Part shown: piece after piece, positions 36,491 to 54,305 of the stretch
How positions within the stretch are numbered: the stretch's first letter is position 1
Layout of the letters: each line of letters begins with the position of its first letter
From: Ignavibacteriota bacterium
GTDB taxonomy: Bacteria > Bacteroidota > Ignavibacteria > UBA10030 > UBA6906
Direction of reading: 5' to 3'
DNA length: 64,000 nucleotides
Assembly: GCA_963837815.1 (NCBI GenBank)
Contig: CAWIOS010000012.1
Span: 783,005-847,004 of the forward strand
Translations under genes and position numbers: made by a program
The notes under the pieces: generated by a model
Seen by the model: the letters and a program-made list of their open reading frames with translations, nothing else
What the model was told of the DNA's origin: nothing
The model's database searches: none

Positions 36491-36491
36491 G

Positions 36492-39431: not shown

Positions 39432-39434
39432 GCG

Positions 39435-40373
39435 TCAATCCTCCTTCATGCCGGCCATCGCCAGCAGGAGGGCGCCGTGCGCCGGTCCGTTCATGGGCGG
39501 GTCGATATGCGCCGCGGGAACGCTCTTCCTGATCTCCGCTTCCAGCATGCGCGAATAGATCGAACCGTGGTCGATAAGACCGCCGATCATCACAACCCCG
39601 GCCCCGCCCCGCATGCCGAGCCGGTCGATGGCGGCAACCACCTGGAGGGCAAGGGCCCCCGAGGCGCGGGAGAGTATGTCCAGCGCCACAGCATCGGATG
39701 ATTCCGCCGCTTCAAGAACCGCCGGCGCAATCGATGGTATGTCGAATTTCTCCCTGTACACGGCTGCAATGATCCTCTCGCGCGTTGCGAGGCCGAACCG
39801 GGACGAGAGGACCATGCGAAGCCGGCCGGCCTCCCCCCTTCCGTCGATCTCCCTCGAGACCGCCTTGATGGCCTCGAGTCCGATACGGTAGCCGCTCCCT
39901 TCATCCCCGATCACTCTTCCCCACCCGCCGATCGAGATTGTCTCGCCGGCGGGCGATTTTCCCATGACGACCGAGCCGGTCCCCGCGACGGCGACGACAC
40001 CGGGGCCCCCGTTGAACGCCCCCTCGAGCGCGACGCGGCCGTCGGACTGGATGGAGATGGGAACGGGAGGAAGTCCCATCATACGGAACCGGGCGTGGAT
40101 CGCATCGGTCAGGACCTGACGGTCCCGTTCGGACCCCGCCCCCGCGAGTCCCAGCACGGCGGAGCCGATATCGGCAACGGGTCGGGCGGCGGTCTTTGCG
40201 AGACCTGCTATAAGCTCCGCCAGATTCAGCGCGACAATGTCGATGCCGAACACATTCTGATTGGAGCCGTTCCCCCTGCCGCGCGCGAGAACCGTGCCGG
40301 TACCATCGGCGAGGAGACCCGTGGTCTTGGTGCCGCCGCCGTCAACGCCGAGCACGAGAGAGTGATGTGCCAA
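39435..40373 (-). CDS. BadF/BadG/BcrA/BcrD-type ATPase: N-acetylglucosamine / N-acetylmuramic acid kinase (MurK/NagK-like)
   Basis: 312 aa; N-terminal ASKHA phosphate-1 motif LGVDGGGTKT; overall BadF-type sugar kinase pattern. Confidence 0.75.
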   Translation of the reverse strand: MAHHSLVLGVDGGGTKTTGLLADGTGTVLARGRGNGSNQNVFGIDIVALNLAELIAGLAKTAARPVADIGSAVLGLAGAGSERDRQVLTDAIHARFRMMGLPPVPISIQSDGRVALEGAFNGGPGVVAVAGTGSVVMGKSPAGETISIGGWGRVIGDEGSGYRIGLEAIKAVSREIDGRGEAGRLRMVLSSRFGLATRERIIAAVYREKFDIPSIAPAVLEAAESSDAVALDILSRASGALALQVVAAIDRLGMRGGAGVVMIGGLIDHGSIYSRMLEAEIRKSVPAAHIDPPMNGPAHGALLLAMAGMKED

Positions 40374-40378
40374 TGGGA

Positions 40379-42913
40379 TTATTTCAGAAGTTCTATTTTT
40401 GTTGTCCTGACAAATCGGATTCCCCCCCCCGCATCCGATGCGATCATGCGGACGAAGTACACCCCGCTCCCGAACGAGGCGGCGTTCCAGACCGCCGAAT
40501 GCGAGCCGGCCGCCACCTGACCGTCCACGAGGCTCGCGACCTCCTGGCCCAGCAGGTCATACACTCTCAGCGAGACGCGCACGCCGGCCGGGACGCGGTA
40601 GGCGATGACCGTCGACGGGTTGAACGGGTTCGGGTAGTTCTGGCTCAGGGCATACTCCGCAGGAATCGCGGGAGCCGGCGGCGGGACGGAAACGATCACG
40701 GACCTCAAGAGTTGAAGCTGGTCGACGAGGACCAACCCCGATCGCGCGCTCACCCCGGGGAGATAGCGGAACTGGAACGCGTCAAAGCGCATCTGCCCGC
40801 CGAGGTTCGGAGCGCCGAGCCAGGAACCGACGGAGTCGTTGGCAAGATCCCATTCCACCAGCCTCCATCCAACCCAGTCGAGCGGGTACCAGCGGCTCAC
40901 CTTGTGGTTTTGTGGCCTCCCCCCGGGATAGATGTCGACGCTGTCCTCGATGCCAAACCGGAACTGGCTCAGATCGCCCTCGTTGTACACGAACGCCTCA
41001 AGCACCGTCCCCTGTTTCTGAAAGAGGATCGAGCGCTCCGGAGCGAGAGTATCGAGCGGCACGCGCAGGAGCCAGGACGACGCGGCCGTGTCCCATGCGT
41101 ACCTGAGCAATCCGGCGACCGGATCGCCCGCCAGTGCAGGGAACGCGGTGCTCTCGATAGAGTCGAACGACGCCGTGTCGACGCCCGTCGTGTAGGGCGC
41201 GGTCATCGGCTGCCTCCACTGCACCGGGCGCGTATTGAACGAGTCAATCGTCGTTGTGATGCGCGACAGGGGCTGGACGGAAAATGACCAGACGAGCGGT
41301 GAAGTGCCCGGGATGATGTTCCCCGTCATATCCTTCGCGCCGCTCACGCTTACCGTATAGGATGCGCCGGGCTCAAGTCCTCCGGTGACGAAGATATTGA
41401 CGCCGCTCCTGGAGGGCGTCCCGATGTACATGACGGTCCGCGCGAGCGAGGGGAGACCGCCGATTTGTCCGATCCTGAAATTCGCCGTGGTGACCGTCGC
41501 CGGGTTCAGCGGTTCATCAAACGTGATGTTGACCGTGGTGTACGGCGTCGCCACCGTCATCGCGGAATCCGGGAACCGGGAGAGGATGACGGGCGGGTTC
41601 AACCGGACAATTTTCGTCCGGAAGCCGAGAATGAACGGATGGCCGGGAGTCCCGACGCCGGTCCCGTCAACAGGCTGGCCCGAGGCGCTGCGGGCGTTCG
41701 TATCGACCTTCACGGTGAAATTGACAGGAAACGGGAACGGAGCGACCGGCGTGAACGTCAGGATCGTGTTGTCCGGGTCCCACGAGAGACTCCCGGTGAC
41801 CGCGGGGGCGATCGAAAAGGCCGCGCGGACGGATGCGGTGTCCATCGGTGCGGAGAAGTGTATCCCAACCGCCGTCCTCGGGTCCACGGACGTATCCCCG
41901 TTCACCGGACTCGTCGAGAGGACAACCGGGAACCCGGTCGATGCGAGCGTCCGGTCAACGAACACGGTGGCGCCGGTTCCCACGACAACGGCGATGGAAT
42001 CCGTCCTGTAGCCGGGAGTCTCGAAACGGACGGTGTAGGAACCGGGAGCGAGGCTGTCGAACATGAAGAAGCCGTTCTTGAACGCGTCCCCGCCGTACAC
42101 CCTGCCGGAAGGAAGCAGTCTCACGCGGGTATTGTTCACGGGAGCCCCGCCGGCAACATCGGTCTGTATCCCCGCGATGATGCCGCGCGGATCGGCCGGA
42201 ACGCCGAAGTACTGCATGAAGGCGTTCCGGATGGCATAGGCTTCCATTTTGTGGTAATCGTTGTTCAGGAGACGCCGGCACTCCGGATAGAAGTCATGGA
42301 ACGAACCCTCGGAGAGCTCTCCCGGCATCAGAAGGCCGCTCAGCACGCCCAGGTTGTACCCGCCCGCCGGACCTCCGTAAAATGTGTAGTCAAGCCAGGT
42401 GCTCGTGCTGCTCGTCCGGAGCATCCCCTGTATCGCCGGACCGATCAGATTCGACATCGTGACGTCCTGCGGGAACGCGGCAGTGCGCGTCGGGATGTCT
42501 TCCTTCACGAGCATCAGTGTATAATTGATGCTCGTGTTGTCCGCCAGCCCGCTCGCGTTGGAGTGTATCGAGTGAAACCAGTCGACGTTGTTCGCGTTGG
42601 CGAGCTGCCAGCGCGCCGTGAGGCTCGGCTCGTCGTTCCCGTCGGGATACGTCGTGTCGTTCGACGTCCGGGTCAGTATGACCGTCGCCCCCTGCCGCCA
42701 CAGCAGCTCCCTGAGGAGGAGCGCCTTCTCGAAGTTGCTTTCCGATTCCCAGAAATTCACACCCGGATCCGGCTGGACATTCCGGTCGTCACTCGAATAC
42801 CCGCCGTGCCCCGGATCGATGCAGAATTTCAACCCCGAGAGGTCGGACCTCTGCGCCACCGCGAGAGACGCAGAAAGGACGACGATGCATGTCAGAGGAA
42901 GTCTCCTGCTCAT
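40379..42913 (-). CDS. T9SS-secreted N-acetylmuramoyl-L-alanine amidase (N-terminal Amidase_3 catalytic domain, Ig-like/beta-sandwich repeats, C-terminal Por-secretion sorting domain)
   Basis: 844 aa; signal peptide; Amidase_3 motifs CIDPGHGGYSSDD…NFEKALLLREL…FHSIHSNA. C-terminal about 80 aa …QNYPNPFNPSTVIAYRV…VYDLLGQEVASLVDG…GSGVYFVRMIASDAGGGIRFVRTTKIELLK matches type-A T9SS CTD. Confidence 0.75.
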   Translation of the reverse strand: MSRRLPLTCIVVLSASLAVAQRSDLSGLKFCIDPGHGGYSSDDRNVQPDPGVNFWESESNFEKALLLRELLWRQGATVILTRTSNDTTYPDGNDEPSLTARWQLANANNVDWFHSIHSNASGLADNTSINYTLMLVKEDIPTRTAAFPQDVTMSNLIGPAIQGMLRTSSTSTWLDYTFYGGPAGGYNLGVLSGLLMPGELSEGSFHDFYPECRRLLNNDYHKMEAYAIRNAFMQYFGVPADPRGIIAGIQTDVAGGAPVNNTRVRLLPSGRVYGGDAFKNGFFMFDSLAPGSYTVRFETPGYRTDSIAVVVGTGATVFVDRTLASTGFPVVLSTSPVNGDTSVDPRTAVGIHFSAPMDTASVRAAFSIAPAVTGSLSWDPDNTILTFTPVAPFPFPVNFTVKVDTNARSASGQPVDGTGVGTPGHPFILGFRTKIVRLNPPVILSRFPDSAMTVATPYTTVNITFDEPLNPATVTTANFRIGQIGGLPSLARTVMYIGTPSRSGVNIFVTGGLEPGASYTVSVSGAKDMTGNIIPGTSPLVWSFSVQPLSRITTTIDSFNTRPVQWRQPMTAPYTTGVDTASFDSIESTAFPALAGDPVAGLLRYAWDTAASSWLLRVPLDTLAPERSILFQKQGTVLEAFVYNEGDLSQFRFGIEDSVDIYPGGRPQNHKVSRWYPLDWVGWRLVEWDLANDSVGSWLGAPNLGGQMRFDAFQFRYLPGVSARSGLVLVDQLQLLRSVIVSVPPPAPAIPAEYALSQNYPNPFNPSTVIAYRVPAGVRVSLRVYDLLGQEVASLVDGQVAAGSHSAVWNAASFGSGVYFVRMIASDAGGGIRFVRTTKIELLK

Positions 42914-43833
42914 CGGGGGGTTTCGGCATACGTTATCACGAGTATCCCGCCTTCGAGAGTGCTGAAGGCAATTTCGTCAGCGACCGGAGAGCACTGGGGG
43001 AACATCCCGTTGATGTGTGAAGCGGAGGTGAGATCCCCTTCCGTTTTTCCGTCGGGGGAGACGAACGCAATGGCGGATGACCGTATCCTATGCCCGTCAT
43101 CCCTGTCCGCCATATAGATGAGCCACCTTCCGTCCCGGGTCCAGGCCGGGGCGTCCCGGCGCCCGATCCTGAGTGGATGACTCCCGTCGGCGCCACAGAC
43201 AAATGTCCCCCTGTCCATCTCGTACGCGACGAGCTTCGAGCCGTCGGGGGAAAGTGAGGGCCAGACGTAGCTTCCGTTGCCGAGCGGATCGACGAGCGAT
43301 TTCACACCGTCACGGACCACGGCGATTTTCGTATCCTCGACGCCGAGGACCGAGACGACGCCCGGGGGCTGAATGGCCGGCTTCACGCCCTGGATTTCGC
43401 CGGCAACGGAGAACACGACATCGGATCTGACAAATGAGGGGAGCGAAAGTGATCTTCCCGAGGCAAGGACCGACGGGGGGCCGCCGGAGAGATTGCGGAC
43501 GACGACTTCCTGCACCCGTTCACCCGGCAGGGCCCCCGGGAGCGTCCGGCGCCAGGCGATCTGAGATCCGTCGGGGGATATCGTGAAGCCGTACCCCGAT
43601 CCCCTGTCGGCGGTTATCTGCACTGCATCTCCCCCGGCCCCGGGACACGCCCATATGCCGCCGAAATCCGAGGCGGTGTAGTAGATCGTTTTCCCGTCGG
43701 GCGACCAGCGGGGTGCAGACCAGAGGCGGGCGCTCCCCAGGGGGAGTGTCCGGACGGTCAGTACTTTTATCTGAGCTTCCAGCGGGAGAGAGACGACAAA
43801 GAGGAGCAGTGCAATCAGACTGCGCATACCCAC
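42910..43833 (-). CDS. TolB-like periplasmic beta-propeller (PD40 repeats) protein
   Basis: 307 aa; signal peptide; repeated SPDGK/SPDGS blades (WSPDGKTIYYT, ISPDGSQIAW, LSPDGSKLVAY, VSPDGKTEGD). Start overlaps upstream gene stop by 4 nt. Confidence 0.65.
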   Translation of the reverse strand: MGMRSLIALLLFVVSLPLEAQIKVLTVRTLPLGSARLWSAPRWSPDGKTIYYTASDFGGIWACPGAGGDAVQITADRGSGYGFTISPDGSQIAWRRTLPGALPGERVQEVVVRNLSGGPPSVLASGRSLSLPSFVRSDVVFSVAGEIQGVKPAIQPPGVVSVLGVEDTKIAVVRDGVKSLVDPLGNGSYVWPSLSPDGSKLVAYEMDRGTFVCGADGSHPLRIGRRDAPAWTRDGRWLIYMADRDDGHRIRSSAIAFVSPDGKTEGDLTSASHINGMFPQCSPVADEIAFSTLEGGILVITYAETPR

Positions 43834-43967
43834 TTCTCCGGAGAAAAAAGCGTGGTTCAGTTCGCCCTGGCGAGAGCGGCGTCACGGGCCCTGCGTCCGC
43901 AATGACAGGGGCCGCCCGCGAACACGCCATACCTCCCAATATAGGAAAAACGGAGGAAAGGGGCTTT

Positions 43968-46328
43968 TCAGCTCCGGTCCTCCGTGACTTTCCTGAGCTC
44001 CCTGACCATCTCATAGAATTCGGCAAGCGCCATCTCCCGGAGGAATATCATCCCGCGTGCGGCGCGAAGCCTCGGATGCCCGTTCTTCAGGAAGAAGTCC
44101 GTCCCCAGTATCGTCTTGATCATCCCGTACTGGCCGACCTGGATCTTTTGCGCAAGCTCGGAGAACGGACCGTCGTGCTCATAGCTCGGAAAGGATGCCG
44201 CGCTCTGCGAGCCGAAGCAGTTCATGAATGCCGTGTGGAGCATCGTGATGGAGTTGATCGACACCGGGACAAACAGGTTCGCCTCCGCCGGGCGGTACCT
44301 GTACCAGACGTTCCTGTATCCCCACACCCGCAGCGTGGAATCGCCGCTCTCTTTCTCGTAGAGCTTCAACGCCTCGGCCACGGCCTGGAGGGCTTTGTAA
44401 TGCGTGTCGGGCCCGCTCCCTTCCGGGTCGAATGCGACGGAGACGACGTTCGGCCGGACTTTACTGATCAGCTCGAAGATCGGCACGACGTCCCTGTGGA
44501 CTTCGGGTTCCGGCGAGAATATGTCGCCCGTGTAGAAACCGAGCCTCAGCGGATGGATCGCGTACGATTCGATGCCGAAATACGCCCAGAGGAGCTCCAC
44601 CTCCCATTCGCGCGTCATCCCCTTGAGGAGCTGGACCTGCTGCGGGTCCTTGGCGCCGCTGTACTGCGAGCGGCAGTAGCCGATGAGCTCCTGAACACGG
44701 TTGCGCAGCGTGTGGAGGTCATGCGTCTGGTACAGGCCGACGAGATTGCGGAGCAGGCGCCTCGCTTCCGCCTCGTCCTTCATCTCCTGGCTGTTCGCCG
44801 CGGCCCCGTCGAGATAGAGATAGACGTCCTCCATGCGGGAGGCGTTTTCATGCGTGTCGAAGTACCCCTGCACCAGCAGGGCGAAAAGCGTGCCGGTCTC
44901 GAGATGGCTTTCGAGCTTCACGAGGATCGAGAGGAAATACGGGTTCGAGACCGATGTGAAACCGGAGGTCAGGTTGGCGAAATAGTGCTTGTTGCTTGGA
45001 TCGCGGACGAGATGGTAGATGTGCGCGAGGTAGCCGAGCATGATGTCATCGTGATGGGGCTCGGTGTGCAGGAATGTCGTATTCGACACGTGGTCGAGAC
45101 CCTTCTCGATCTTCCCGATGATCCTGTTGCGCGCTTCCGTGGCGAGGTCGACGGGCATCTTCCCGCTCTTGCGCAGCAGCTCGGAGGCAAACCGGTCCCC
45201 CTCGAAATCCTCTTTCGTGAGCTGGACGAGCTGCTTCCCCGATTTCAGGGCGAGCGTCGTCACGACGTCCTCGGAGCGCGCGGGCGTGAGCGTGGTCTCC
45301 CTGCAGAAATCCTCGAACTGCCGCTCCGTAAGGAGGCTCGCGGCACCACGCGTGAGGTAGAACCGGGCATTGGGGAGATCCTGGAGAACGGAGGCGGGAT
45401 ACTGCGGCCCCTTTTCGTTCTCGACGGCGAGCCGGACGATCGCGGCCTTCGCGTCCCCGGCGGCGATAATGATCGCGACGGCCCCGGGGTTGTACGTGAT
45501 CGTCGCAAGCCCGATCGTAATCACAAGCCGCGTCCGGGAAATCTCGATCCCGCCCAGATCCGTGGCGGCGGCCGCCTGCGTCTCGTAGTTGGTGCCCGTC
45601 AGCCGCGTCACCGAATAGACGCTCGACCCCCTCACGTTGAACGCGATGTGTCCGTCCGGCCCGATCCCGCCCAGGAAAAACCCGATACCCCCCATCTCCC
45701 GGACCTTTGTCTCGTATTCCATGCAGAATTCGTCCACCCGGTTGATGACGTCTTTCTGCAGGAGCTCGAGATCCGAGCGGCACTGCCTGACGCGGAGCGA
45801 GAGATCGACGACGCTGCCGGGGAACACCTCGTCCATGGTCTTGCCGGGGGGAAGCCCCAGCGACGTGGCGTTGATGAGCAGGGCCCTGGAGGGGGACATG
45901 CCGAACCCCTTGATGTAGAATTCGTTGACGTACCAGTGGAAGCTGTTATGCTGCGCCGCGTTGATCGGATAGAATTCGTCGATCTGGACGAAGCTGAGCG
46001 ACCTCATGTCCGGCGGCTTCGACCCGTCGATCTCCGCGGCCGCGAGGAGAGACTGGATGTCCTTCGTCTCCCACCGTTCCAGGATGCGCGTCACCCACTT
46101 GATGAAATGCTCGGGTGTCTTTCCGGTGGGGAGCGATATCACCCCGCCGGGATTCCTGATGACCCACTCGATAAACCGGAGCGCGGTGAGCTTCCCGAGC
46201 TGCGGGAAATTCGCAACCTCCACGATTCCGATCTTTTCCGTGGGCGCATACATGGGTTTGCGTCCGCTCCGCTGGAGCTCCATTTCTTCGATCCGGGATG
46301 TCCCGTCATACTGCCTGAGGTTTGCCAT
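43968..46328 (-). CDS. Fusion protein: glucosamine-6-phosphate deaminase/isomerase-like (NagB) domain + LmbE/PIG-L-family N-acetylglucosaminyl deacetylase domain
   Basis: ORF 43968..46406; probable start MANLRQYDG at 46328. N-terminal NagB-like region (…VISLPTGKTPE…FVQIDEFYP…GIGPDGHIAFN…); central LmbE motif FLHTEPHHDDIMLGY (AHPDDE-type). Confidence 0.7.
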   Translation of the reverse strand: MANLRQYDGTSRIEEMELQRSGRKPMYAPTEKIGIVEVANFPQLGKLTALRFIEWVIRNPGGVISLPTGKTPEHFIKWVTRILERWETKDIQSLLAAAEIDGSKPPDMRSLSFVQIDEFYPINAAQHNSFHWYVNEFYIKGFGMSPSRALLINATSLGLPPGKTMDEVFPGSVVDLSLRVRQCRSDLELLQKDVINRVDEFCMEYETKVREMGGIGFFLGGIGPDGHIAFNVRGSSVYSVTRLTGTNYETQAAAATDLGGIEISRTRLVITIGLATITYNPGAVAIIIAAGDAKAAIVRLAVENEKGPQYPASVLQDLPNARFYLTRGAASLLTERQFEDFCRETTLTPARSEDVVTTLALKSGKQLVQLTKEDFEGDRFASELLRKSGKMPVDLATEARNRIIGKIEKGLDHVSNTTFLHTEPHHDDIMLGYLAHIYHLVRDPSNKHYFANLTSGFTSVSNPYFLSILVKLESHLETGTLFALLVQGYFDTHENASRMEDVYLYLDGAAANSQEMKDEAEARRLLRNLVGLYQTHDLHTLRNRVQELIGYCRSQYSGAKDPQQVQLLKGMTREWEVELLWAYFGIESYAIHPLRLGFYTGDIFSPEPEVHRDVVPIFELISKVRPNVVSVAFDPEGSGPDTHYKALQAVAEALKLYEKESGDSTLRVWGYRNVWYRYRPAEANLFVPVSINSITMLHTAFMNCFGSQSAASFPSYEHDGPFSELAQKIQVGQYGMIKTILGTDFFLKNGHPRLRAARGMIFLREMALAEFYEMVRELRKVTEDRS

Positions 46329-46341
46329 AGCGTCCGTCGTG

Positions 46342-48096
46342 TCACTCCTTTGTTGTGAGTTTCCATTCGGCCGGAAGCTCCGAAAGCCACCGGGCAAAGA
46401 ATACATTCGGCACCATGTCGTGCTCGACCCCCGCCGGGGTCATGGACCAGCGCGATCCCGCGGCGGCGACGCTCGCGGCGACGTCAGCGTGCTCCTTCGC
46501 AAGGTGGTCCGTGTACGCGGCCCTGATGATCCCCTTCCCTTTCAGGAGCCAGTCGCGGAAGTACTCGTGCTGCCCGTACAGAGCGTCAAAAAGGAACACG
46601 TGCGTTATCAGGCCGGACATGCCTCCGCGGTCAAGAACGAACCCCGCGGGGCGGTAGCCGCCGCTGTGGGCGGTGACGATCACGCGCGCGACCTCCGTTG
46701 ACGGCACGACGTTCTCTTTCTGCATCGTCGCCATGACGTCTTCCACCATCCTGCGGAAGCCCCCTTCGTCCTCCATCTTCCCGCCGAACGAATCCCTGGC
46801 CCTGTACGGCCCCTGGGGGATCACAAGCAGCGCGTTGATATTCTGCGCGATCATTGACTGGGGGAGAAGGTACTGCTCGAGGACTCCCAGGTCGTCGTTC
46901 ATGTGCCCGTGGAAATGCACAATCACGTTCGCCCCGCCTTTGACCGCATGAAACCCGTCGGGGACGAAGACGACGATGCTGCTGTCGGCATAATGAGGGA
47001 AAAACGGGTAGACCGTCCCGTCTCCCCCCGTGTATCCGTCCTGTCTCGCGGGATGGGGGAAGGGAGCGGCCGCCGAGCGGTAGATTCCCCACTTCCCCCC
47101 CTTGAACGCCGTCCAGTCGACGCCGGACGTGCTGACCGGCCCCCTGTCGTACCCCGTCATCCCGGTGAACTGGTTCCAGACGGCCCGGGCAGCGTATGCG
47201 CCGAGAAGCGTGGCCGCATCCGCGCCGTCGTCCAGATGGTCGGGGGACTTATCGACGTAGATCGCGATCGCGAACTTCACCCTGTCGGTAAGAACAAGAG
47301 CGACGTCGGCTTTGGTTTCGGTGATGCTTCCCGTCTTGTGGGCGACCGCAAACGACGTGCATGCCCACTGCGGGAGAAGCCGCGGGACCATGTCGGCATA
47401 GAACTGGTTCTCCAGTATCCCGATCATCGACGCGCAGGAGGCGGAATCACAGAGGGTGCCCCTGAAGAGTTTTTCCATGAGGAGGGCCATGTCTTCCGGG
47501 GTCGTCACGCCGATTCCGTACCGCATCGCTTCCGGCGTCTCCTGTTTTGTCTCGAGCGTGAAGAGACGGTTGAGTATGCGCGTGTTCTTCAGCCCCCGCG
47601 AGGCGATAAAATCGTTCACGTTCGCCAGCCGCGCCTGATGCGTCCCGGCGAGCCGGTCGAGGACGAGATTCGTCGCCGTGTTGTCGCTCATCGTGATCAT
47701 GAGCGTCACGGCGTCATGCAGCGTGATCACCGCGCCGTCATCCAGGAACTGCAGGACGCCCGATCCGGGTTTCCTGTCTCCGGCGCGGAGCGTGATCCGG
47801 GCCCCGGGATCGATCTCCTTCTTTCTGACCATGTCGAAATACGCCGTCATCACGGGGAGCTTGATCGTGCTCGCGGTCGGGAAACAGTCGGTCGCATTGT
47901 ACGAGACTATTTCCCCCGTGGACAGATTCTTCGCCATCACTCCCATATGCCCGCCGAACCGGGCGTTGAGCGCGCGCAGCTCCGCCATGACGTCCGCGCG
48001 GGCGGGGAGATTTCCCGCAAGAGAGAGGAAACAAAGGAGCGCAAGGGTCCGTTTGCCGGCCGCCGCGGGCCAGCAGCGATCATTCACAGATGCCAT
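46342..48096 (-). CDS. Secreted fusion: class A beta-lactamase-fold serine hydrolase (possible DD-carboxypeptidase) + C-terminal alpha/beta-hydrolase (esterase-like) domain
   Basis: 584 aa; signal peptide; N-terminal domain with S-x-x-K (PTASTIKLPV), SDN (MSDNTATN), KTG (HKTGS) motifs; C-terminal domain with oxyanion-type HFHGH and nucleophile elbow GxSxG (TAHSGGY). Confidence 0.7.
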   Translation of the reverse strand: MASVNDRCWPAAAGKRTLALLCFLSLAGNLPARADVMAELRALNARFGGHMGVMAKNLSTGEIVSYNATDCFPTASTIKLPVMTAYFDMVRKKEIDPGARITLRAGDRKPGSGVLQFLDDGAVITLHDAVTLMITMSDNTATNLVLDRLAGTHQARLANVNDFIASRGLKNTRILNRLFTLETKQETPEAMRYGIGVTTPEDMALLMEKLFRGTLCDSASCASMIGILENQFYADMVPRLLPQWACTSFAVAHKTGSITETKADVALVLTDRVKFAIAIYVDKSPDHLDDGADAATLLGAYAARAVWNQFTGMTGYDRGPVSTSGVDWTAFKGGKWGIYRSAAAPFPHPARQDGYTGGDGTVYPFFPHYADSSIVVFVPDGFHAVKGGANVIVHFHGHMNDDLGVLEQYLLPQSMIAQNINALLVIPQGPYRARDSFGGKMEDEGGFRRMVEDVMATMQKENVVPSTEVARVIVTAHSGGYRPAGFVLDRGGMSGLITHVFLFDALYGQHEYFRDWLLKGKGIIRAAYTDHLAKEHADVAASVAAAGSRWSMTPAGVEHDMVPNVFFARWLSELPAEWKLTTKE

Positions 48097-48114
48097 CGGG
48101 AGTTCTCCGGTCGG

Positions 48115-49263
48115 TCACACTTTAATGAACCACTTTCTCTTCCACATCGCCCAGACGACCAGGTACATCACCAGGATGAACGCAATGGCAAACGCTGCCG
48201 AGGCGTTCACCGGACTGAAGTAGGGAACGAAGAGGTTGTCGTAGATAAGGCCTTTCAGCGTCACCGGGTTGCCGTCGGATCCCGTGAACCTGATGAGCGT
48301 CAGGAGGCGCCCGACGATCCCCGAGAGGACGAACACCGCGATCGCGTTCATCCCGTAGATAACGAACGGGCGTGCCCACTTCGTATGCCCCTTCACGTCC
48401 ATCAGCCAGTAAAATACGGAGAAGCACACAAGGGCCCAGCCGGCCATGAACACGACGTACGAGCTCGTCCAGAGATTCTTGTTGATCGGCAGCCAGATAT
48501 CCATGATCGCCCCCGCAAGAAGGAAGAAATTCCCGAAGACGAACATCCATGCCGTCTTCTCTTCGCGCGAATGATTCGAGCGGAGCCAGTGACCCGTGAG
48601 TATACCGAGAAGCGTCGTCGCAATCGCGGGGACCGTGCTGAGTATTCCTTCGGGATCAAATCCGGGAGCAGGCGCACCACTCCAGGTATGTCCTGCAAGC
48701 AGGTGTGAATCAATGTACCAGGGGAGACAGCCGGTCGGCTGGAGGACGCCTGGGCCGAAGCCGGGGACGGGGATGAGCATCACCGCGGCCCAGTACGAGG
48801 CCAGGAGCCCCACGACCCACCAGACCTGCGCCTTCCACCCCGTGTAGAGGAATATCGTGCTCGCCGCAAGATAACAGACCGCAATCCTCTGGAGGACGCC
48901 GGGTATGCGCATCGTCGAGAGTGAAAAGTTGCCGACAATCAGGCCGAACGGGAACCCGTTCAGGAACGTCCCCAGCGCGAATATGATCACGGCCCTGCGG
49001 AGGACGTGAAGGAGGAGCTTCCCGCTGTCCTCGCCCCGGTCCTTCCTCTTCTGGAAGGAGAGCGTCATGGCGACGCCGACGATCCAGAGAAAGAACGGGA
49101 ATATCCAGTCGGTGAACGTCCACCCGTTCCACCGTGCATGCTCGAGCTGCGGGTAGATAAAGTTCCAGGAACCGGGATTGTTGACAAGTATCATGCCGGC
49201 AATCGTGGCGCCGCGAAATGCGTCGAGTGAACCGAGGCGGGAGGAGGAATCCGTGGTGGTCAT
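48115..49263 (-). CDS. nagX: Polytopic membrane protein of the DUF1624/DUF5009 HGSNAT-like family (NagX-like, amino-sugar uptake/acyl transfer)
   Basis: 382 aa, about 10 TM; conserved N-terminal RLxSLDxFRGxTIxxMILVN motif (RLGSLDAFRGATIAGMILVNNPG) characteristic of this family. Confidence 0.65.
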   Translation of the reverse strand: MTTTDSSSRLGSLDAFRGATIAGMILVNNPGSWNFIYPQLEHARWNGWTFTDWIFPFFLWIVGVAMTLSFQKRKDRGEDSGKLLLHVLRRAVIIFALGTFLNGFPFGLIVGNFSLSTMRIPGVLQRIAVCYLAASTIFLYTGWKAQVWWVVGLLASYWAAVMLIPVPGFGPGVLQPTGCLPWYIDSHLLAGHTWSGAPAPGFDPEGILSTVPAIATTLLGILTGHWLRSNHSREEKTAWMFVFGNFFLLAGAIMDIWLPINKNLWTSSYVVFMAGWALVCFSVFYWLMDVKGHTKWARPFVIYGMNAIAVFVLSGIVGRLLTLIRFTGSDGNPVTLKGLIYDNLFVPYFSPVNASAAFAIAFILVMYLVVWAMWKRKWFIKV

Positions 49264-49305
49264 GGGCTATGGTGTCGTGGGCAATTGTTTCGGGTTGCCG
49301 CGTGG

Positions 49306-49400
49306 CGCCTGCGGCGGGATGCAAAAAGCGCTCCCCGCCTGTGGCGGGATGCAAAAAGCGCTCCCCGCCTGTGGCGGGATGCAAAAAGCGCACATTGATT
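49306..49400. repeat. Tandem array of three 30-bp direct repeats (ggcgggatgcaaaaagcgctccccgcctgt), each an imperfect palindrome/hairpin; third copy degenerate
   Basis: Visible at 49313-49342, 49343-49372, 49373-49395 (plus a partial leader copy from 49306). Each unit has arms ggcggga / tccccgcc around an A5-containing loop. Lies 5 nt downstream of the epimerase stop and about 40 nt upstream of the nagX start on the minus strand. Confidence 0.8.
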
Positions 49401-50539
49401 CATAGTTTGGTGATGCCGAGGCCGGGGCCGTCGGTCAGCGTGACCTTCCCGTCGACGATCGCGGCTCCTTTGAAGAGGTCGTTGCTTATCAGGAGAGCGC
49501 CGTCCAGGTCCGCATAATCCGCCAGCGGTGAAAGCTGCGCCGCGGCGGAGATCGCGCACGAGGTCTCCGTCATGCACCCGATCATCACCTTCATGCCGAG
49601 CGCCCGGGCGGCCGCGATCATCTTGTACGCTTCGTGCATGCCGGTGGATTTCATCAGCTTGATGTTGATGCCGTCGAATACGCCGATCGCGTTCTTGATG
49701 TCCGACATCCGGACGACGCTCTCGTCCCCGATGAGGGGGAGCGGGCTGCGCGACCGGAGCCAGGCGATATCATCCGGTTGCTCTTTCGGCATCGGCTGCT
49801 CCACGAACTCCACCCCCTTCGTCGCGAGCCATTCGATCTCCTTCAGGGCGGCTTCCCTGTCCTTCCATCCCTGGTTCACGTCCACGCGGATCGGCTTGTC
49901 CGTCACCTCCCGTATCGTCTCGATCATCTCCTTGTCATTCGCGAGTCCCATCTTGACTTTGAGGACCCTGTATATTTCCGCCTCCTTCACCTTCTGCCTC
50001 ACCACATCCGGCTTGTCGATCCCGATCGTGAACGTCGTGACGGGGGCTTTCGACGGGTCGAGCCCCCAGATCCTGTACCACGGGCATCCCATCTTCTTCC
50101 CTATCCAGTCGTGGAGCGCGATGTCAACGGCGGCTTTCGCGGCATTGTTCCCGGGCGCGATCGCGTCAACATCGCGGAGTATGTCTTCGAGACGGAACGG
50201 GTCGGCGTATTTTGCCATGTCCACCTTCGAAAGAAACGCTGTCGCGCTCGCGTGGCTCTCGCCGAGATAGGGGGGCATCGAGGCCTCACCGTACCCGACG
50301 ATCCCGTCCTGTTCGACCTCCACCATCATGACGGGGGTCGTGCTGCGCGAATACGTGGCCACCGTGAAGACGTGTTTCAGTTCGAGCGTGTAGGGATAGA
50401 ATCTGAGTTTCATGGGATTCCCCGTTGTTGATCCCGTGACGGCGCTTCGACCGAGCGACAAGAGAGCGCTCCGGCCGAGCGCGAGCGACGCCCCTGCGAG
50501 GGCCGACCGTTTGAGAAATGTCCGTCTGTCAGTGTTCAT
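49400..50539 (-). CDS. L-Ala-D/L-Glu dipeptide epimerase (enolase superfamily, MLE subgroup; YkfB/YcjG-like) with Tat-type signal
   Basis: ORF 49400..50578; start MNTDRRTFLKRSALAGASLALG (twin-Arg) at 50539. Enolase-superfamily KxK motif (LKVKMG), metal ligands (DVNQGW…E…D). Paired with NlpC/P60 endopeptidase gene upstream. Confidence 0.75.
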   Translation of the reverse strand: MNTDRRTFLKRSALAGASLALGRSALLSLGRSAVTGSTTGNPMKLRFYPYTLELKHVFTVATYSRSTTPVMMVEVEQDGIVGYGEASMPPYLGESHASATAFLSKVDMAKYADPFRLEDILRDVDAIAPGNNAAKAAVDIALHDWIGKKMGCPWYRIWGLDPSKAPVTTFTIGIDKPDVVRQKVKEAEIYRVLKVKMGLANDKEMIETIREVTDKPIRVDVNQGWKDREAALKEIEWLATKGVEFVEQPMPKEQPDDIAWLRSRSPLPLIGDESVVRMSDIKNAIGVFDGINIKLMKSTGMHEAYKMIAAARALGMKVMIGCMTETSCAISAAAQLSPLADYADLDGALLISNDLFKGAAIVDGKVTLTDGPGLGITKL

Positions 50540-51770
50540 AGCCGCCGTAGTACGGGAGTGATGCAAGCCGGCGGACACCCGAGGATTCCCGGGCGCCGAT
50601 GATCCTGCGTGCCCTTATGAAATTCACCGAACGGAAATCGCTGTAGTCTGAATCGGCCGGGTCCAGGCTGTTAAAATGGACGTCGGCGGACGAATGGATG
50701 AAACGCTTTCCCCCGAGCGAGATGGCAACGTGCGTTATCCTCTCCGGCTTCTCACCCGAGGCGCGAGCCCCGAAAAACATGAGGTCGCCCGGTTCCAGGT
50801 TCATGTTCCCCCCGGGAACGTCCACGGGGTCCCCCACGGCAGCCTGCTGGTCGGCGTCCCGCGGAAGAAGGACACCGTTGAGAGCATAGACCGTCTTCGT
50901 GAATCCCGAGCAGTCCATCCCCTTCGCGGAGGTCCCCCCCCAGAGGTAGGGGACGCCGAAGAACCGTTTCGCCGTTGCGACGATCCGTTCCGGTGTATCC
51001 TTCGCCCGGGCAAGCCATGTCTCACACGGTTCAGACTGGTCCCTCCCGATGAAACCCGCGCGGCCGTCCGGATATTCCACCTCGTACAACGAGCCGGAGA
51101 TCCCCCGGAAGCCAAGGAGCGAACCCGCCACGACATCGCTCACGGGCTGAGAGGATTTCTCATTCGTGGAGCGGACCCAGGCGAATTCGGCGGTGACGAT
51201 GAGTTTCGGCATCCGCGCCCAGGCGTCGTACCGGTCGTTCGCCATACAGACAATCCTGTCATCGGTCCATCCCAGGTATTCATCCGGCGTCTGGACGAGA
51301 TACCATCCGTCGTTCTTTTTCAGAATCTTCACAGGCGTGCCAAGCAGAGCCTGGGATGCCAGTTCGGCCGGGTGCATCGGTTTGCTCCGGAGGTTGGCAA
51401 CGCTCACGTTGATGACGCCGAGTGTCTTTTCCCCCACAGACGGTCCGGGGAGGGAAATGATGCTATCGATGATTGCATAGCCCCCTTTCCCGCGGAGGAA
51501 CCCGAGGAGCCGTTCGTGCATCTGCGCGTCCTGTATTTCGCCCGTCAGTGTCAGCGTCATGCCGGACACCGTTCCATGCACGTCAAACACCGCCGTGCGG
51601 TGGTCGGGGGCGAGGTTCTCCCGTGCTTCATTCAGGAGTGCGTTTGCCATCGGGGAGTCCGTTGTCCGTGTGCACGCCGCGACGAGAGACACACATGCCG
51701 CAGCCAGGAGGATCCGCCATTGGGTCCGCGGATGCGGAATGATGACGACCGATGTGCGCGCGCGGGTCAC
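50529..51770 (-). CDS. NlpC/P60-family gamma-D-glutamyl-(L)-diamino-acid endopeptidase with SH3b domains (YkfC-like)
   Basis: 413 aa; lipoprotein-like N-terminus (…LLAAACVSLVAAC); NlpC/P60 catalytic motif FGVPYLWGGTSAKGMDCSGF plus His (ITHVAISLG). Confidence 0.8.
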   Translation of the reverse strand: MTRARTSVVIIPHPRTQWRILLAAACVSLVAACTRTTDSPMANALLNEARENLAPDHRTAVFDVHGTVSGMTLTLTGEIQDAQMHERLLGFLRGKGGYAIIDSIISLPGPSVGEKTLGVINVSVANLRSKPMHPAELASQALLGTPVKILKKNDGWYLVQTPDEYLGWTDDRIVCMANDRYDAWARMPKLIVTAEFAWVRSTNEKSSQPVSDVVAGSLLGFRGISGSLYEVEYPDGRAGFIGRDQSEPCETWLARAKDTPERIVATAKRFFGVPYLWGGTSAKGMDCSGFTKTVYALNGVLLPRDADQQAAVGDPVDVPGGNMNLEPGDLMFFGARASGEKPERITHVAISLGGKRFIHSSADVHFNSLDPADSDYSDFRSVNFIRARRIIGARESSGVRRLASLPYYGGYEH

Positions 51771-54149
51771 TTATTTGATGAGGAGCATTTTTTTCGTCAT
51801 TGTAAACGCGGCGGCGGTCATTCGCACGATGTACATGCCGCTCGCCCGGTTTGACCCGTTCCACGGGACGGCGTACCTCCCGGGGGCCTGCACACCGTCG
51901 ACAAGCCGCTCCACCTCCTGGCCGAGCATGTCGTACACGATTATCGTCACCCTGCCCGACACAGGGAGCTGATAGCCGATCGTTGTCGAGGGGTTGAACG
52001 GGTTCGGATAATTCTGATCCAGCCCGAACGTCGACGGGACTCCGGGCGGGGTTTCCACGCCCGTGACCTGCACGGTGCGGAACTTGTACACCGGAGACCA
52101 TGCGCTCGTCCCGATAGAGTTGGTCGCCCGGACCCTCCAGAAATAGATCGTGAAATACTCGAGCGGGGGAGCACCCAGCGCCGTGTCGGCGACGCCGGCC
52201 GAGTCCATGACGGGAGAGGCGAAATCCGCGCTCTTTCCGATCTGCAGACGGTACGATACGGGGCCGGTCGAGAGGGCCGGACTCCACCGGAGCGACAGGA
52301 ACACAGGGAGGTCGGGCTGCATGTTCGCCGGATACAAGAGAGACGGCGTCGCCGGGAAACCTGTCCGGAAATTCGACGCCGCGGACCAGGAGCTTGTCCC
52401 CCCGCCACTTGAAGCCCGCACACGCCAGTAATACAATGCCTGCCCCTGGAACCCCTTTACGAGCCGGAACGTGTCCGTAAGGGCCGACTCATTCCAGACC
52501 AGGCCCGACGCAAACGCCGGGTCCGTCCCGACCTGAAGCTGGTAGCCCGATGCAAGGAGCGATGAACGCCATGTGACGCTCAGGCTTTCGGCCACGTCGG
52601 ACGTGCCGCTCAGGGGCGCAGAGAGAAGCGGAGCGGGAGGAGCTGAGAGTATTATGATGTTGCTCGTGTCGCTCTCGACATAGTTCCGGCTGAGGGCTGT
52701 GACGAGATAGTACCAGGGTCCACCCGGGGACGGGGGAGCCGGAGGGACGAAATATCTATTTCCTTCGACGGAGAGTATGTTCAGCGGGTTCGCAAGCTCG
52801 GACGCCGCCGGGCGGTGGTCAAAACGATACACGACATACCGGTACGCGGTATCGCCGTTCGGCGAGACAATGGGAAGGTCCCACTGGATCGCGGCGGGAG
52901 CCACGCCGGGAAGCGCCGCGTAACGGATGCCGCGTGGCATATAGGGAGGGGTCATATCCTTCCACGGCATCGGCGCGATGAGCGCCGGGTACGCGTACAC
53001 GCTGTTCCGGAGTGTGTCGGCGATCCCGCCCAGGTTCCCCGAAGTAATATCGTTCGTCGTGAACTGAATGTTCCCCTGCGTGTTCACGTCGGCCCTTGAG
53101 AACCGGATCTGTTGTGCGATCTGGGAGGCGTCACCGAACGAGCTCGTCCCAATCCTGTACGTCGCAAGCCCCGGGTACGAGTGCCGCCCGTGCGCCGCCA
53201 CCGAGTCGGACCACCAGGGCTCGAGTGTCGCGTAGTCCTGCGGCCCGCCGAACTTCCAGTAGAGCTGCTGGGCCAGGTAGTCGACATACTGGCCGTCGAG
53301 CCAGGCCATAGGGTCGCAGTAGATAACGGAGTAGTTGTCGTTTCCGCTCGTGTTCGGGGGCATACCGTCCTTCCAAATACCCGCAGGGCTCATGCCGAAC
53401 TTCACCCAGGGTTTAATCGCCTTTATGCTGTCGTAAATCGCCTGAAGGAGTATATTGACGTTGTCGCGCCGCCAGTCACCCCTGTCGGAAATTCCGCGCC
53501 AGTTGAGGCCGTAGGAGGAATCGTCCTGGTGCGCGGTGATCCCCTCGGCGTAGAAATAGTCGTCCATATGTATCCCGTCAACGTCGTAGCGGCGGGTCAC
53601 ATCGAGTAGGACGCTGGTGACGTACGCCCTGACATCCGGCAGCCCCGGGTCGAGCATCTCGAGGTTTCCGATCGTGAGTATCCACCCGGGATGCCGGACC
53701 GAGACATGCATGGAGCTAATGGGATATGCCCCGATGGAATTGACCGCCCTGTAGGGATTGAACCACGCGTGCAGCTCCATCCCCCTCTTGTGAGCCTCAT
53801 CGACGGCAAACTGGAGCGGGTCGAACGGGGACTGGGGAGGGGTCCCCTGCGACCCGGTCAGCCAGTATGACCAGGGCTCGATCGAGGACTGATAGAAGGC
53901 GTCGCACTCCGGGCGCACCTGAAATATCACCGCATTGAACCCCTCCGCGCGGAGGCTGTTGAGTATCGATACCAGCGAGTCCTTCTGCCTCTGGACCGGA
54001 CCGCCAAGAACCGGGGGCCAGTCGGTGGCCCCCACAGTCGTGAGCCAGACGCCCCGGAACTCATGCTTCGGCAAGACCTGGGAAGTGCAGGTCAGTACCA
54101 CCGACAGGAGGAGTGCGCCGACGGCCAACGGCAGATGAAGAGGTTTCAT
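51771..54149 (-). CDS. T9SS-secreted GHL10 (glycoside-hydrolase-like family 10 / YngK-type TIM barrel) protein with FN3-like repeats and Por-secretion C-terminal domain
   Basis: ORF 51771..54200; start MKPLHLPLAVGALLLSVVLTCTS at 54149. GHL10 N-terminal motif EFRGVWLTTVGATDWP…NAVIFQVRP…HAWFNPYR; middle FN3-like repeats; C-terminal …DQNYPNPFNPSTTIGYQL…VYDMLGQEVERLVDG…GMYIVRMTAAAFTMTKKMLLIK type-A CTD. Confidence 0.7.
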   Translation of the reverse strand: MKPLHLPLAVGALLLSVVLTCTSQVLPKHEFRGVWLTTVGATDWPPVLGGPVQRQKDSLVSILNSLRAEGFNAVIFQVRPECDAFYQSSIEPWSYWLTGSQGTPPQSPFDPLQFAVDEAHKRGMELHAWFNPYRAVNSIGAYPISSMHVSVRHPGWILTIGNLEMLDPGLPDVRAYVTSVLLDVTRRYDVDGIHMDDYFYAEGITAHQDDSSYGLNWRGISDRGDWRRDNVNILLQAIYDSIKAIKPWVKFGMSPAGIWKDGMPPNTSGNDNYSVIYCDPMAWLDGQYVDYLAQQLYWKFGGPQDYATLEPWWSDSVAAHGRHSYPGLATYRIGTSSFGDASQIAQQIRFSRADVNTQGNIQFTTNDITSGNLGGIADTLRNSVYAYPALIAPMPWKDMTPPYMPRGIRYAALPGVAPAAIQWDLPIVSPNGDTAYRYVVYRFDHRPAASELANPLNILSVEGNRYFVPPAPPSPGGPWYYLVTALSRNYVESDTSNIIILSAPPAPLLSAPLSGTSDVAESLSVTWRSSLLASGYQLQVGTDPAFASGLVWNESALTDTFRLVKGFQGQALYYWRVRASSGGGTSSWSAASNFRTGFPATPSLLYPANMQPDLPVFLSLRWSPALSTGPVSYRLQIGKSADFASPVMDSAGVADTALGAPPLEYFTIYFWRVRATNSIGTSAWSPVYKFRTVQVTGVETPPGVPSTFGLDQNYPNPFNPSTTIGYQLPVSGRVTIIVYDMLGQEVERLVDGVQAPGRYAVPWNGSNRASGMYIVRMTAAAFTMTKKMLLIK

Positions 54150-54223
54150 AGGAAATGATGGTTCCGATTGACGCGCGGCGGATTTCAAGGATCCCGGCAC
54201 ACTGGAATCTACTGAATTTCCCG

Positions 54224-54263
54224 AATAAATGAAAAGGCATCCCGCACATTTGCGCGGGATGCC
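54224..54263 (-). terminator. Putative rho-independent terminator (10-bp GC stem ggcatcccgc/gcgggatgcc, 8-nt loop, followed on minus strand by TTTTCATTTATT)
   Basis: Perfect inverted repeat at 54236-54263; on the transcribed (minus) strand it is followed by a T-rich tract; located 43 nt downstream of the stop of gene 54306..55769. Confidence 0.55.
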
Positions 54264-54305
54264 CTCTCAATCCTCAACCCCCGGTCAGCAAGGGGGGGCG
54301 AATAG

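Follow-up and report, generated by a model that had tools for sequence, protein, structure and literature searches.

In a 64,000-nucleotide stretch of an Ignavibacteriota genome (NCBI GenBank assembly GCA_963837815.1, contig CAWIOS010000012.1, positions 783,005 to 847,004 of the forward strand; this whole stretch is called the window, and positions below are counted from its first letter), the gene at 46342..48096 on the minus strand codes for a protein in which a class-A-beta-lactamase-like domain is joined to an alpha/beta-hydrolase domain. We consider it fairly probable that this protein is a Sec-exported, likely periplasmic, bifunctional processor of peptidoglycan fragments that would act as DD-carboxy-/endopeptidase and as serine esterase in the service of the surrounding operon. 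This reading is carried by the folds of the two domains, by their catalytic motifs and the conservation of these, by the recurrence of the fusion and its operon context, and by an independent fusion of the same C-terminal domain to an S13 peptidase.

Architecture and export of the two-domain protein

The gene begins with an ATG codon and encodes 584 amino acids in two domains, as seen in the list of open reading frames (ORFs); its coordinates agree with a preliminary description of this DNA that had been made from the sequence alone. Homolog searches revealed an identical protein, representative P0001, and more than 100 clusters of full-length homologs with 54-91% identity, all of which have the two-domain architecture. 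The full-length AF2 model reached a mean predicted local distance difference test score (pLDDT) of 91.6 and a predicted template modelling score (pTM) of 0.76. The overall layout is as follows.

46342..48096, minus strand: whole gene of the two-domain exported protein, stop codon at 46342-46344 (ORF list, homologs, model)
47995..48096, minus strand: predicted Sec signal peptide, residues 1-34, with KR, hydrophobic TLALLCFLSLAG, then ARA followed by DV (read from the sequence)
47164..47991, minus strand: N-terminal class-A-beta-lactamase-like / PBP-A-like penicillin-binding domain, residues 36-311
46345..47121, minus strand: C-terminal alpha/beta-hydrolase domain of an undescribed family, residues 326-584

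In the AF2 model the signal-peptide region has low pLDDT and forms a single helix at residues 14-26. A Pfam scan did not find a C-terminal sorting domain of the type IX secretion system (T9SS) in the two-domain protein; this domain is present in the neighboring GHL10 and Amidase_3 proteins. Taken together, the Sec signal peptide and the lack of a T9SS sorting domain indicate that the protein is probably exported via Sec and located in the periplasm. Conservation was read from two alignments, a family alignment of the C-terminal domain (A1) and an alignment of 104 homologs of the full-length protein (A2). Residues at the domain junction (R304, W307, N308, W328, G334 and W336) are strongly conserved among the 104 homologs.

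The PBP-A-like lineage of the N-terminal domain

Residues 52-281 match the Pfam family PF13354 (Beta-lactamase2) with E = 6.9e-58. The translation contains the three class A motifs (STIK at 76-79, SDN at 137-139 and KTG at 254-256), and both the motifs and the class-A-like nature of the domain had been recognized in the preliminary description.

47860..47871, minus strand: S76-T-I-K79, equivalent of Ser70-x-x-Lys73, containing the nucleophile; S76 and K79 invariant in the 104 homologs and kept across phyla
47680..47688, minus strand: S137-D-N139, SDN loop; S137 and N139 invariant in the 104 homologs and kept across phyla
47329..47337, minus strand: K254-T-G256, with His253 before it (HKTG as in PBP-A); K254 and G256 invariant in the 104 homologs
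47512..47574, minus strand: omega-like loop, residues 175-195, with invariant K184, E189, R192 and G194 and no ExxxN (alignments, residue counts, cross-phylum conservation)

Cross-phylum fusions carry either HKTG or NKTG. Against the NCBIfam model for class A enzymes (NF033103, bla_class_A) the domain scored 108.1 bits and did not reach the curated cut-off of 200, and all named beta-lactamase sub-families stayed at or below 59 bits (cut-offs 320-670). A match to PF00768 (S11 DD-carboxypeptidase) was weak and under its threshold. When solved structures were searched by sequence, 4EWF from Sphaerobacter (E = 6e-31) and Tll2115/PBP-A (E ~1e-21) came ahead of true class A enzymes, which appeared from ~1e-13. 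Structure comparison gave tabulated figures, in a column without heading, of 35.5 for 4EWF (33% identity), 34.2 for PBP-A (2J7V; 30%) and 30-33.6 for true class A enzymes (20-24%). By sequence and by structure, the nearest solved relatives are 4EWF and then PBP-A, ahead of true beta-lactamases. Esterases with a beta-lactamase fold turned up in the structure comparison, but not as nearest relatives.

PBP-A, the nearest functionally characterized structural relative, acts on muropeptides as a DD-carboxypeptidase and as a DD-endopeptidase, as experiments have shown; it has no catalytic omega-loop Glu, and introduction of a Glu (L158E) raised its beta-lactamase activity, that is deacylation, 90-fold, which nonetheless stayed five orders of magnitude under real enzymes (PMC11189452; PMC7514474). 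PBP-A of Thermosynechococcus elongatus (Tll2115, PDB 2J7V/2J9O) and the window protein have SxxK, SDN and HKTG in common, and neither is recognized as true class A. PBP-A is a single-domain protein, whereas the window protein has the added C-terminal alpha/beta hydrolase and a catabolic operon around its gene, and the PBP-A family was stated to be confined to cyanobacteria (PMC11189452). Moreover, the omega loop of PBP-A is shortened, whereas that of the window protein is longer and has its own invariant K184, E189 and R192. Because of this longer loop we do not count the N-terminal domain as a strict member of the PBP-A family. The other close structure, 4EWF, is a structural-genomics entry for a Sphaerobacter thermophilus 'beta-lactamase'; it is a single-domain protein of 275 amino acids with a shorter omega-region. 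Ambler class A enzymes (TEM, SHV, CTX-M, KPC; NF033103) have the fold and the motifs S70xxK73, S130DN132 and K234TG in common with the domain, but the window protein has His instead of Asp/Glu before KTG, no Glu166/Asn170, a second catalytic domain and a murein operon.

The preliminary description had pointed to the omega-loop equivalent of Glu166 as the residue to look at. From the Thr of NT(R/V) to the TT motif we counted 26 residues in the window protein, 20 in TEM-1 and 14 in PBP-A, the last in agreement with the published six-residue deletion in the PBP-A omega loop (PMC7514474). The omega-like loop is 6 residues longer than that of TEM-1 and 12 longer than that of PBP-A, and these extra residues make the alignment at position 166 unstable. 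HMMER against wild-type PBP-A set Leu178 on Leu158, the Glu166 equivalent. MAFFT placed Thr180 under Glu166 and Lys184 under Asn170, and hhalign selected Glu182, a position at which just 38 of the 104 homologs have Glu. The x-Pro-acid motif (TEM E166-P-E168, PBP-A L158-P-D160) led to Thr187 of Thr187-Pro188-Glu189. Finally, an ungapped C-anchored alignment to PBP-A set the invariant Glu189 on Leu158, and HMMER picked this same alignment for the L158E mutant. Glu189 thus stands at the Glu166 position in one of five alignments, and the other four have Leu, Thr, a variable residue and Thr. An ExxxN pair is absent under all five (Glu189+4 is Tyr193, Glu182+4 a variable residue). As none of the loop's Glu residues is followed by an Asn at +4, the Glu166/Asn170 pair of class A enzymes is missing whichever alignment is used. 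The answer is therefore clear for the pair and divided for the single residue, where five alignments name five candidates, one of them the invariant Glu189. Across phyla the loop keeps an invariant set of its own, consisting of Lys184, Glu189, Arg192, Gly194 and Gly196.

Because the class A cut-off is missed, the ExxxN pair is absent and PBP-A is the closest characterized structure, we prefer a DD-peptidase over a true beta-lactamase, which supports the leaning of the preliminary description. We conclude that the N-terminal domain forms a lineage of its own that is PBP-A-like, and that it is very probably no resistance beta-lactamase.

The C-terminal domain as an undescribed alpha/beta-hydrolase family

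Residues 300-584 gave no Pfam match even at E = 10, and a sequence search of the PDB gave no real match. The profile built from the 66 sequences of alignment A1 retrieved chance matches alone from the PDB, none of them at E < 0.5. As these sequence searches were null, identification of the domain rested on structure. The model of the C-terminal half is an alpha/beta hydrolase (pLDDT 92.9) with a central sheet, the nucleophile Ser in a strand-Ser-helix elbow, the acid and then the His behind later strands, and the oxyanion motif behind an earlier one. The top-ranked fold neighbors are carboxyl- and thio-esterases and acyltransferases of the esterase D/CE1 group, and serine peptidases (S9/S10) stand lower in both lists. 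The closest three-dimensional similarity is to the PF00756 'Esterase' group (esterase D / CE1 / Ag85). By sequence, PF00756 was weakly matched by 20 of the 66 family members (best E = 0.003), and the window protein was not matched at E = 10. Judged from the model, the domain is an undescribed alpha/beta-hydrolase family and a distant relative of esterase D/CE1 (PF00756), and the esterase-type hydrolase proposed earlier is thus borne out by the model and its fold neighbors. The following elements were located.

47044..47064, minus strand: P345-F-P-H-P-x-R351, family-specific element ahead of the core sheet, candidate for substrate binding; invariant in alignment A1, kept in S13 fusions and stand-alone forms
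46903..46917, minus strand: H394-F-H-G-H398, with H396 and G397 invariant, at the end of strand 388-396, the usual position of the oxyanion-hole HG (model)
46768..46812, minus strand: G429-P-x-x-A-x-D-S-x-G-G-K-x-E-D443, loop after the next strand; G429, P430, D435 and G439 invariant
46657..46671, minus strand: A476-H-S478-G-G480, nucleophile elbow between strand 469-477 and helix 481-490; S478 invariant in the 104 homologs
46585..46587, minus strand: Asp504 of the LFDA motif, predicted acid of the triad, directly following strand 497-503; invariant (model)
46420..46422, minus strand: His559, predicted base of the triad, located after strand 550-554 in the loop that leads to helix 559-572; invariant in alignment A2 and nearly so in A1

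Of the two motifs named in the preliminary description, HFHGH is found at residues 394-398. The GHSGG-type motif is the consensus of the wider family at the elbow; in the window protein Ala replaces the first Gly, and residues 476-480 read AHSGG. In the model, the predicted Ser478-Asp504-His559 triad looks functional.

An exhaustive HMMER search placed 1016 representative clusters in the family at E <= 1e-3, mostly stand-alone proteins of about 300 amino acids. They come from Ignavibacteriota/Bacteroidota, Verrucomicrobiota, Acidobacteriota, KSB1, Calditrichota, Marinimicrobia and Lentisphaerota, and there is no Pfam model for them. With the esterase D/CE1/antigen-85 group (PF00756; feruloyl esterases, EstA, S-formylglutathione hydrolase, enterobactin esterases, mycolyltransferases) the domain has in common the Ser-Asp-His order, an elbow of the GxSxG type and, behind the third core strand, the oxyanion HG, but identity is 10-15%, and the PFPHPxR and GPxxAxDSxGGKxED motifs as well as the DD-peptidase fusions are its own. 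The domain has no GDSL match in Pfam, and its fold is that of an alpha/beta hydrolase, not of SGNH/GDSL enzymes. A family assignment as LdcA-type LD-carboxypeptidase (LdcA/YkfA, S66) was rejected. There is no PF02016 match, and instead of the S66 fold with its Ser-His-Glu triad we found an alpha/beta hydrolase with a Ser-Asp-His triad.

Recurrence of the fusion and a second, independent DD-peptidase fusion

Recurrence was scanned with one genome per species in the 80 best-matching loci. Both domains lie in one ORF in 48 of these 80. In 34 of the 48 fusion loci, all from Ignavibacteriota/Bacteroidota metagenome-assembled genomes (MAGs), the operon order is the same, namely GHL10-NlpC/P60-epimerase-NagX-[two-domain gene]-NagB-like-PD40-Amidase_3. 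The remaining 14 have a solitary fusion, whose neighbors say nothing about its function, and belong to Acidobacteriota, KSB1, Caldithrix, Lentisphaeria, Marinimicrobia and MAGs labelled 'Cytophagia'. Pfam scans around this gene in MAGs of Acidobacteriota, KSB1, Lentisphaeria and 'Cytophagia' showed unrelated housekeeping or unassigned genes (PFK, Era-like GTPase, BNR/sortilin, M14). The predicted triad and the HG motif are kept in 19 of 21 cross-phylum fusions; the N-terminal motifs are kept as well, also in the other two.

The same C-terminal domain also occurs behind a different peptidase. In P0286, a Peptidase_S13 domain (PBP4-type DD-carboxy-/endopeptidase) lies N-terminal to it. This S13 fusion, represented by P0286 and P0406-P0524, comprises at least 120 clusters of about 790 amino acids, with query coverage of 74-100% (all but three at least 91%). 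Clusters with names are mostly from Verrucomicrobiota, and all motifs of the C-terminal domain are intact. Two long contigs have the S13 fusion next to the gene of the muramidase NamZ, as its immediate neighbor in L085 (8001-10343) and one gene apart in L084 (8001-10385). Clustered with the S13 fusion in L085 are genes for GH25, for an S66 LD-carboxypeptidase and for one protein each with PF13354 and PF00144; the opposite strand carries HGSNAT-like and MR_MLE (epimerase) genes nearby, and a major facilitator superfamily (MFS) gene lies at the locus edge. The stand-alone PF13354 protein of L085 was considered as an unfused counterpart of the N-terminal domain and rejected, since the two have no significant similarity. 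A further arrangement is seen in P0368 (504 amino acids), which has a GDSL/SGNH esterase domain N-terminal to the same alpha/beta-hydrolase domain, and the relatives P0357, P0379, P0397, P0358, P0367 and P0383 have extra N- or C-terminal extensions without Pfam match.

The strongest argument that the C-terminal domain acts on peptidoglycan together with a DD-peptidase is that two non-orthologous DD-peptidases are fused to it, both in murein-catabolic neighborhoods. It may well be, although we would put the chance a little short of even, that the domain founds a new family of murein-directed serine hydrolases that was welded at least twice to a DD-peptidase, once to a class-A-like penicillin-binding protein (PBP) and once to an S13/PBP4 enzyme.

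The surrounding peptidoglycan-catabolic operon

The preliminary description had placed the gene in a murein-degradation operon. This holds, and the array extends over roughly 28-63 kb of the window.

28109..63448, minus strand: peptidoglycan-uptake and catabolism gene array, on one strand throughout (Pfam and NCBIfam scans)
54306-63448, minus strand: genes 1-5, counted from 63448 down: TonB-dependent receptor, 773-aa protein, PorV-like protein, TIG-domain protein, T9SS cargo
51771-54200, minus strand: gene 6, GHL10 with Ig-like domains and T9SS sorting domain
Minus strand: gene 7, NlpC/P60 with SH3 domains
49400-50578, minus strand: gene 8, L-Ala-D/L-Glu-epimerase-like protein of the enolase superfamily, with the twin-arginine translocation (Tat) signal DRRTFLK (TIGR01409 above cut-off)
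48115-49263, minus strand: gene 9, NagX/HGSNAT-like multi-pass membrane acetyltransferase (NCBIfam NagX 193 bits, cut-off 480)
46342..48096, minus strand: gene 10, the two-domain gene
43968-46406, minus strand: gene 11, long NagB-like protein of 812 aa (weak central NagB match; PRK02122-like 191 bits, cut-off 384)
Minus strand: gene 12, PD40 propeller
40379-42913, minus strand: gene 13, Amidase_3 with Ig-like domains and T9SS sorting domain
Minus strand: gene 14, NagK-like kinase
36492-39431, minus strand: gene 15, GH3+PF00144 fusion of 979 aa (GH3 N- and C-domains; PF00144 E = 7e-66)
Minus strand: genes 16-21, SpoIID, second Amidase_3, MFS permease, GT2, DUF4922 and Asp/Glu racemase (28109-28801)
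18121-19407, plus strand: NamZ exo-beta-N-acetylmuramidase, followed by a DUF3160 protein (E = 1e-173); the pair spans 18121-21613

The TonB-dependent receptor has 1050 amino acids, and the 773-aa protein, without Pfam match, occupies the slot expected for a SusD-like partner. The PorV-like product can also be described as PorV/PorP-like, and the T9SS cargo is a protein of 520 amino acids with no assigned function. This upstream block (54306-63448) is repeated in the relatives L019, L021 and L026. The T9SS tails of the GHL10 and Amidase_3 proteins indicate that foreign peptidoglycan would be attacked at the surface or outside the cell; in Cwp19, the GHL10 domain acts as a lytic transglycosylase (PMC6016235). 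Directly upstream of the two-domain gene, with a gap of 18 nt, lies the NagX/HGSNAT-like gene. It is present in all operon-type loci, and its product may re-N-acetylate glucosamine residues in imported murein. On the other side, the longest NagB-like ORF overlaps the end of the two-domain gene by 65 nt, and most of this protein has no family match. A Tat signal is unusual for the family of the epimerase. Owing to this twin-arginine signal the epimerase is apparently exported folded to the periplasm, which implies periplasmic stem-peptide catabolism. The GH3+PF00144 protein looks as if the NagZ and AmiE of B. subtilis had been joined into one chain, the GH3 part being a NagZ-type beta-N-acetylglucosaminidase; with its class-C-type beta-lactamase-fold domain (PF00144) it is the second 'beta-lactamase' of the locus, and here too an amidase or peptidase acting on murein is probable. 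In the Pfam and NCBIfam scans of the operon genes we recognized no other esterase, with the 773-aa and 520-aa proteins remaining without identity, and we saw no S66 LD-carboxypeptidase gene. The pair of NamZ and DUF3160 genes, separated from the operon by about 25 kb and located on the opposite strand, probably belongs to the same murein-utilization regulon. As judged from its gene content, the operon looks like a complete system to capture, import and dismantle peptidoglycan. The array is flanked by a bifunctional class A PBP (transglycosylase and transpeptidase; 23522-25858, minus strand) and the Asp/Glu racemase (28109-28801, minus strand), and hence genes of wall synthesis adjoin those of wall scavenging.

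The operon can be compared with muropeptide catabolism in B. subtilis, in which YkfA is an S66 LD-carboxypeptidase, YkfB an L-Ala-D/L-Glu epimerase and YkfC an NlpC/P60 gamma-D-Glu-L-Lys endopeptidase. With a YkfB-like, a YkfC-like and a GH3+PF00144 (NagZ+AmiE-like) protein, the window operon seems to follow the same stepwise logic of stem-peptide breakdown as ykfABCD and nagZ-amiE. It differs in that it uses TonB-dependent uptake, T9SS-secreted lytic enzymes and a Tat-signalled, apparently periplasmic epimerase, and in that the genes scanned include no S66 enzyme.

Proposed role in murein scavenging

We propose that the T9SS-displayed GHL10 and Amidase_3 proteins would break up foreign murein outside the cell and that the TonB-dependent receptor would bring the fragments in. 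In the periplasm, the N-terminal domain (Ser76, Lys79, Ser137, Asn139, Lys254) would then cut off terminal D-Ala and/or open 4-3 cross-links between D-Ala and meso-diaminopimelic acid (mDAP). The trimmed stem peptides would become substrates of the NlpC/P60 gamma-D-Glu-diamino-acid endopeptidase and the L-Ala-D/L-Glu epimerase, so that the NlpC/P60 lipoprotein and the Tat-exported epimerase would carry on stem-peptide breakdown, and the glycan would be dismantled by SpoIID, GH3 and NamZ. The C-terminal domain would strip an ester-linked decoration from murein. The nature of the ester is a guess, for which the leading candidate would be the 6-O-acetyl group of N-acetylmuramic acid (MurNAc). A 6-O-acetyl group on MurNAc would also block exo-muramidase action and 6-phosphorylation. 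We consider this group the best candidate because lytic transglycosylases require prior de-O-acetylation (PMC1199599; bioRxiv 10.1101/2021.09.23.461501) and because no other esterase was recognized in the operon. More speculatively, NagX-like re-N-acetylation and the C-terminal domain together might provide tools against both common lysozyme-resistance modifications.

The reaction proposed for the C-terminal domain, removal of the MurNAc 6-O-acetyl group in a periplasmic murein setting, is that of the O-acetylpeptidoglycan esterase Ape1 (PMC1199599; bioRxiv 10.1101/2021.09.23.461501). However, Ape1 has the SGNH/GDSL fold and another motif set, and the alpha/beta-hydrolase domain would be an analogue, not a homologue.

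Alternative explanations

Several observations weigh against a bifunctional processor of scavenged murein. Among alpha/beta hydrolases, whose superfamily includes peptidases too, a fold likeness with 10-15% identity is generic. Stand-alone homologs of the C-terminal domain lack conserved neighbors, and all-against-all BLAST clustering of the genes around 34 such loci found none that recurs beyond the local synteny of close relatives. In the 14 solitary loci, a housekeeping role in wall remodelling is as plausible as scavenging. The invariant Glu189, which the ungapped alignment sets on the Leu158/Glu166 site, may be a beta-lactamase-like deacylation base. Lastly, two Terriglobia MAGs (L032 and L033, gene at ~9113-10855) lack the C-terminal triad and have all N-terminal motifs intact; Gly replaces Ser478, Glu or Asn stands in place of Asp504 and Arg in place of His559, and the oxyanion motif reads HFHGE. 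The C-terminal domain of these two proteins is a naturally 'dead' esterase domain. Such apparent pseudo-enzyme forms show that the domain would matter structurally as well. Carried further, they would speak for a C-terminal domain that is mainly a non-catalytic binding or scaffolding module of the peptidase, with hydrolysis dispensable, and the conserved junction (R304, W307, N308, W328, G334, W336) suggests a fixed interface. We regard this as the most improbable explanation, because the predicted triad and HG motif are invariant in the 104 close homologs, prevail in the cross-phylum fusions (19 of 21) and are kept in S13 fusions and stand-alone proteins; roughly a thousand clusters of mostly stand-alone proteins of ~300 amino acids are hard to explain for an accessory module. 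A catalytic C-terminal domain could, instead of an esterase, be a peptidase, for example an LD-carboxypeptidase (tetra- to tripeptide) or another stem-peptide hydrolase that fills the YkfA-like step. Its fusion to two unrelated DD-peptidase families suggests consecutive steps on one stem peptide, YkfB-like and YkfC-like genes are present without an S66 gene among those scanned, serine carboxypeptidases and S9 peptidases belong to the superfamily, albeit lower in the fold lists, and the invariant Arg351 could bind a carboxylate. On the other hand, the top fold neighbors and the weak PF00756 signal are esterases, thioesterases and acyltransferases, and a GDSL-esterase fusion (P0368) exists too. 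In L085 an S66 LD-carboxypeptidase is encoded alongside the S13 fusion, and the C-terminal domain is therefore not simply a substitute for LdcA there. We hold a peptidase to be unlikely, although it is the most serious of the competing explanations.

For the N-terminal half, a genuine, protective class A beta-lactamase, used for instance while feeding on antibiotic producers and only incidentally located in a cell-wall context, would fit all three class A motifs and the strong PF13354 match. The invariant Glu189 on PBP-A Leu158 in the ungapped C-anchored alignment points the same way, as a Glu at this site gave PBP-A its 90-fold gain in deacylation (PMC11189452, PMC7514474); yet that L158E variant falls short of real beta-lactamases by five orders of magnitude (PMC11189452). 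Glu189 has no Asn170 partner, position 166 is taken by Leu, by Thr (twice) or by a variable residue in four of the five alignments, and the score of 108 bits lies under the 200-bit cut-off and far under that of every named family. Identity is 20-24% to true enzymes compared with 30-33% to PBP-A and 4EWF, the operon with its murein-degrading genes is strictly conserved, and the fusion to a second hydrolase is obligate. A protective beta-lactamase is consequently very unlikely in our view, and 'genuine beta-lactamase' was rejected as a family assignment, the class A cut-off not being reached and ExxxN being absent. We judge it about equally improbable that the N-terminal domain is itself an esterase or amidase, comparable to FmtA, a D-Ala-teichoic-acid esterase, or the ORF12 cephalosporin esterase, which would give the protein two ester- or amide-directed activities. 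The unique omega-like loop with invariant K184, E189 and R192 would suit such a specialization, but PBP-A and class A enzymes stand closest to the domain, the esterase branches do not, and the analogous partner in the S13 fusion comes from a classical DD-carboxy-/endopeptidase family.

Implications

The bifunctional processor, a DD-peptidase with an attached serine esterase, would join a common kind of enzyme, as multi-domain murein hydrolases are widespread. A literature search found no described peptidoglycan-utilization locus of this type and no description of this fusion, and in the literature searched the C-terminal family, its repeated fusions to DD-peptidases and the conserved operon appear to be undescribed. 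The C-terminal domain thus stands for a large alpha/beta-hydrolase family without a name, which two independent DD-peptidase fusions tie to peptidoglycan in a clear and testable way. If it is an O-acetylesterase, SGNH-type Ape enzymes would have a non-homologous counterpart for the same task, and de-O-acetylation of the glycan would be physically coupled to stem-peptide trimming in murein scavenging or recycling. If it is instead an LD- or other stem-peptide hydrolase, it would represent a new peptidase family, with DD-to-LD trimming within one polypeptide.

The names that annotation pipelines give to the two-domain protein are 'beta-lactamase class A' and 'serine hydrolase'. In soil and sediment metagenomes, resistome surveys could therefore count this abundant family as resistance genes, whereas the evidence favors a cell-wall-processing peptidase. 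For the evolution from PBP-A to beta-lactamases, the protein offers a natural point of comparison, since its PBP-A-like scaffold combines a longer omega loop with an invariant Glu. The operon as a whole is a compact and widely conserved blueprint of how Ignavibacteriota-like bacteria would consume bacterial necromass, and it bears on the turnover of carbon and nitrogen in soil and sediment.

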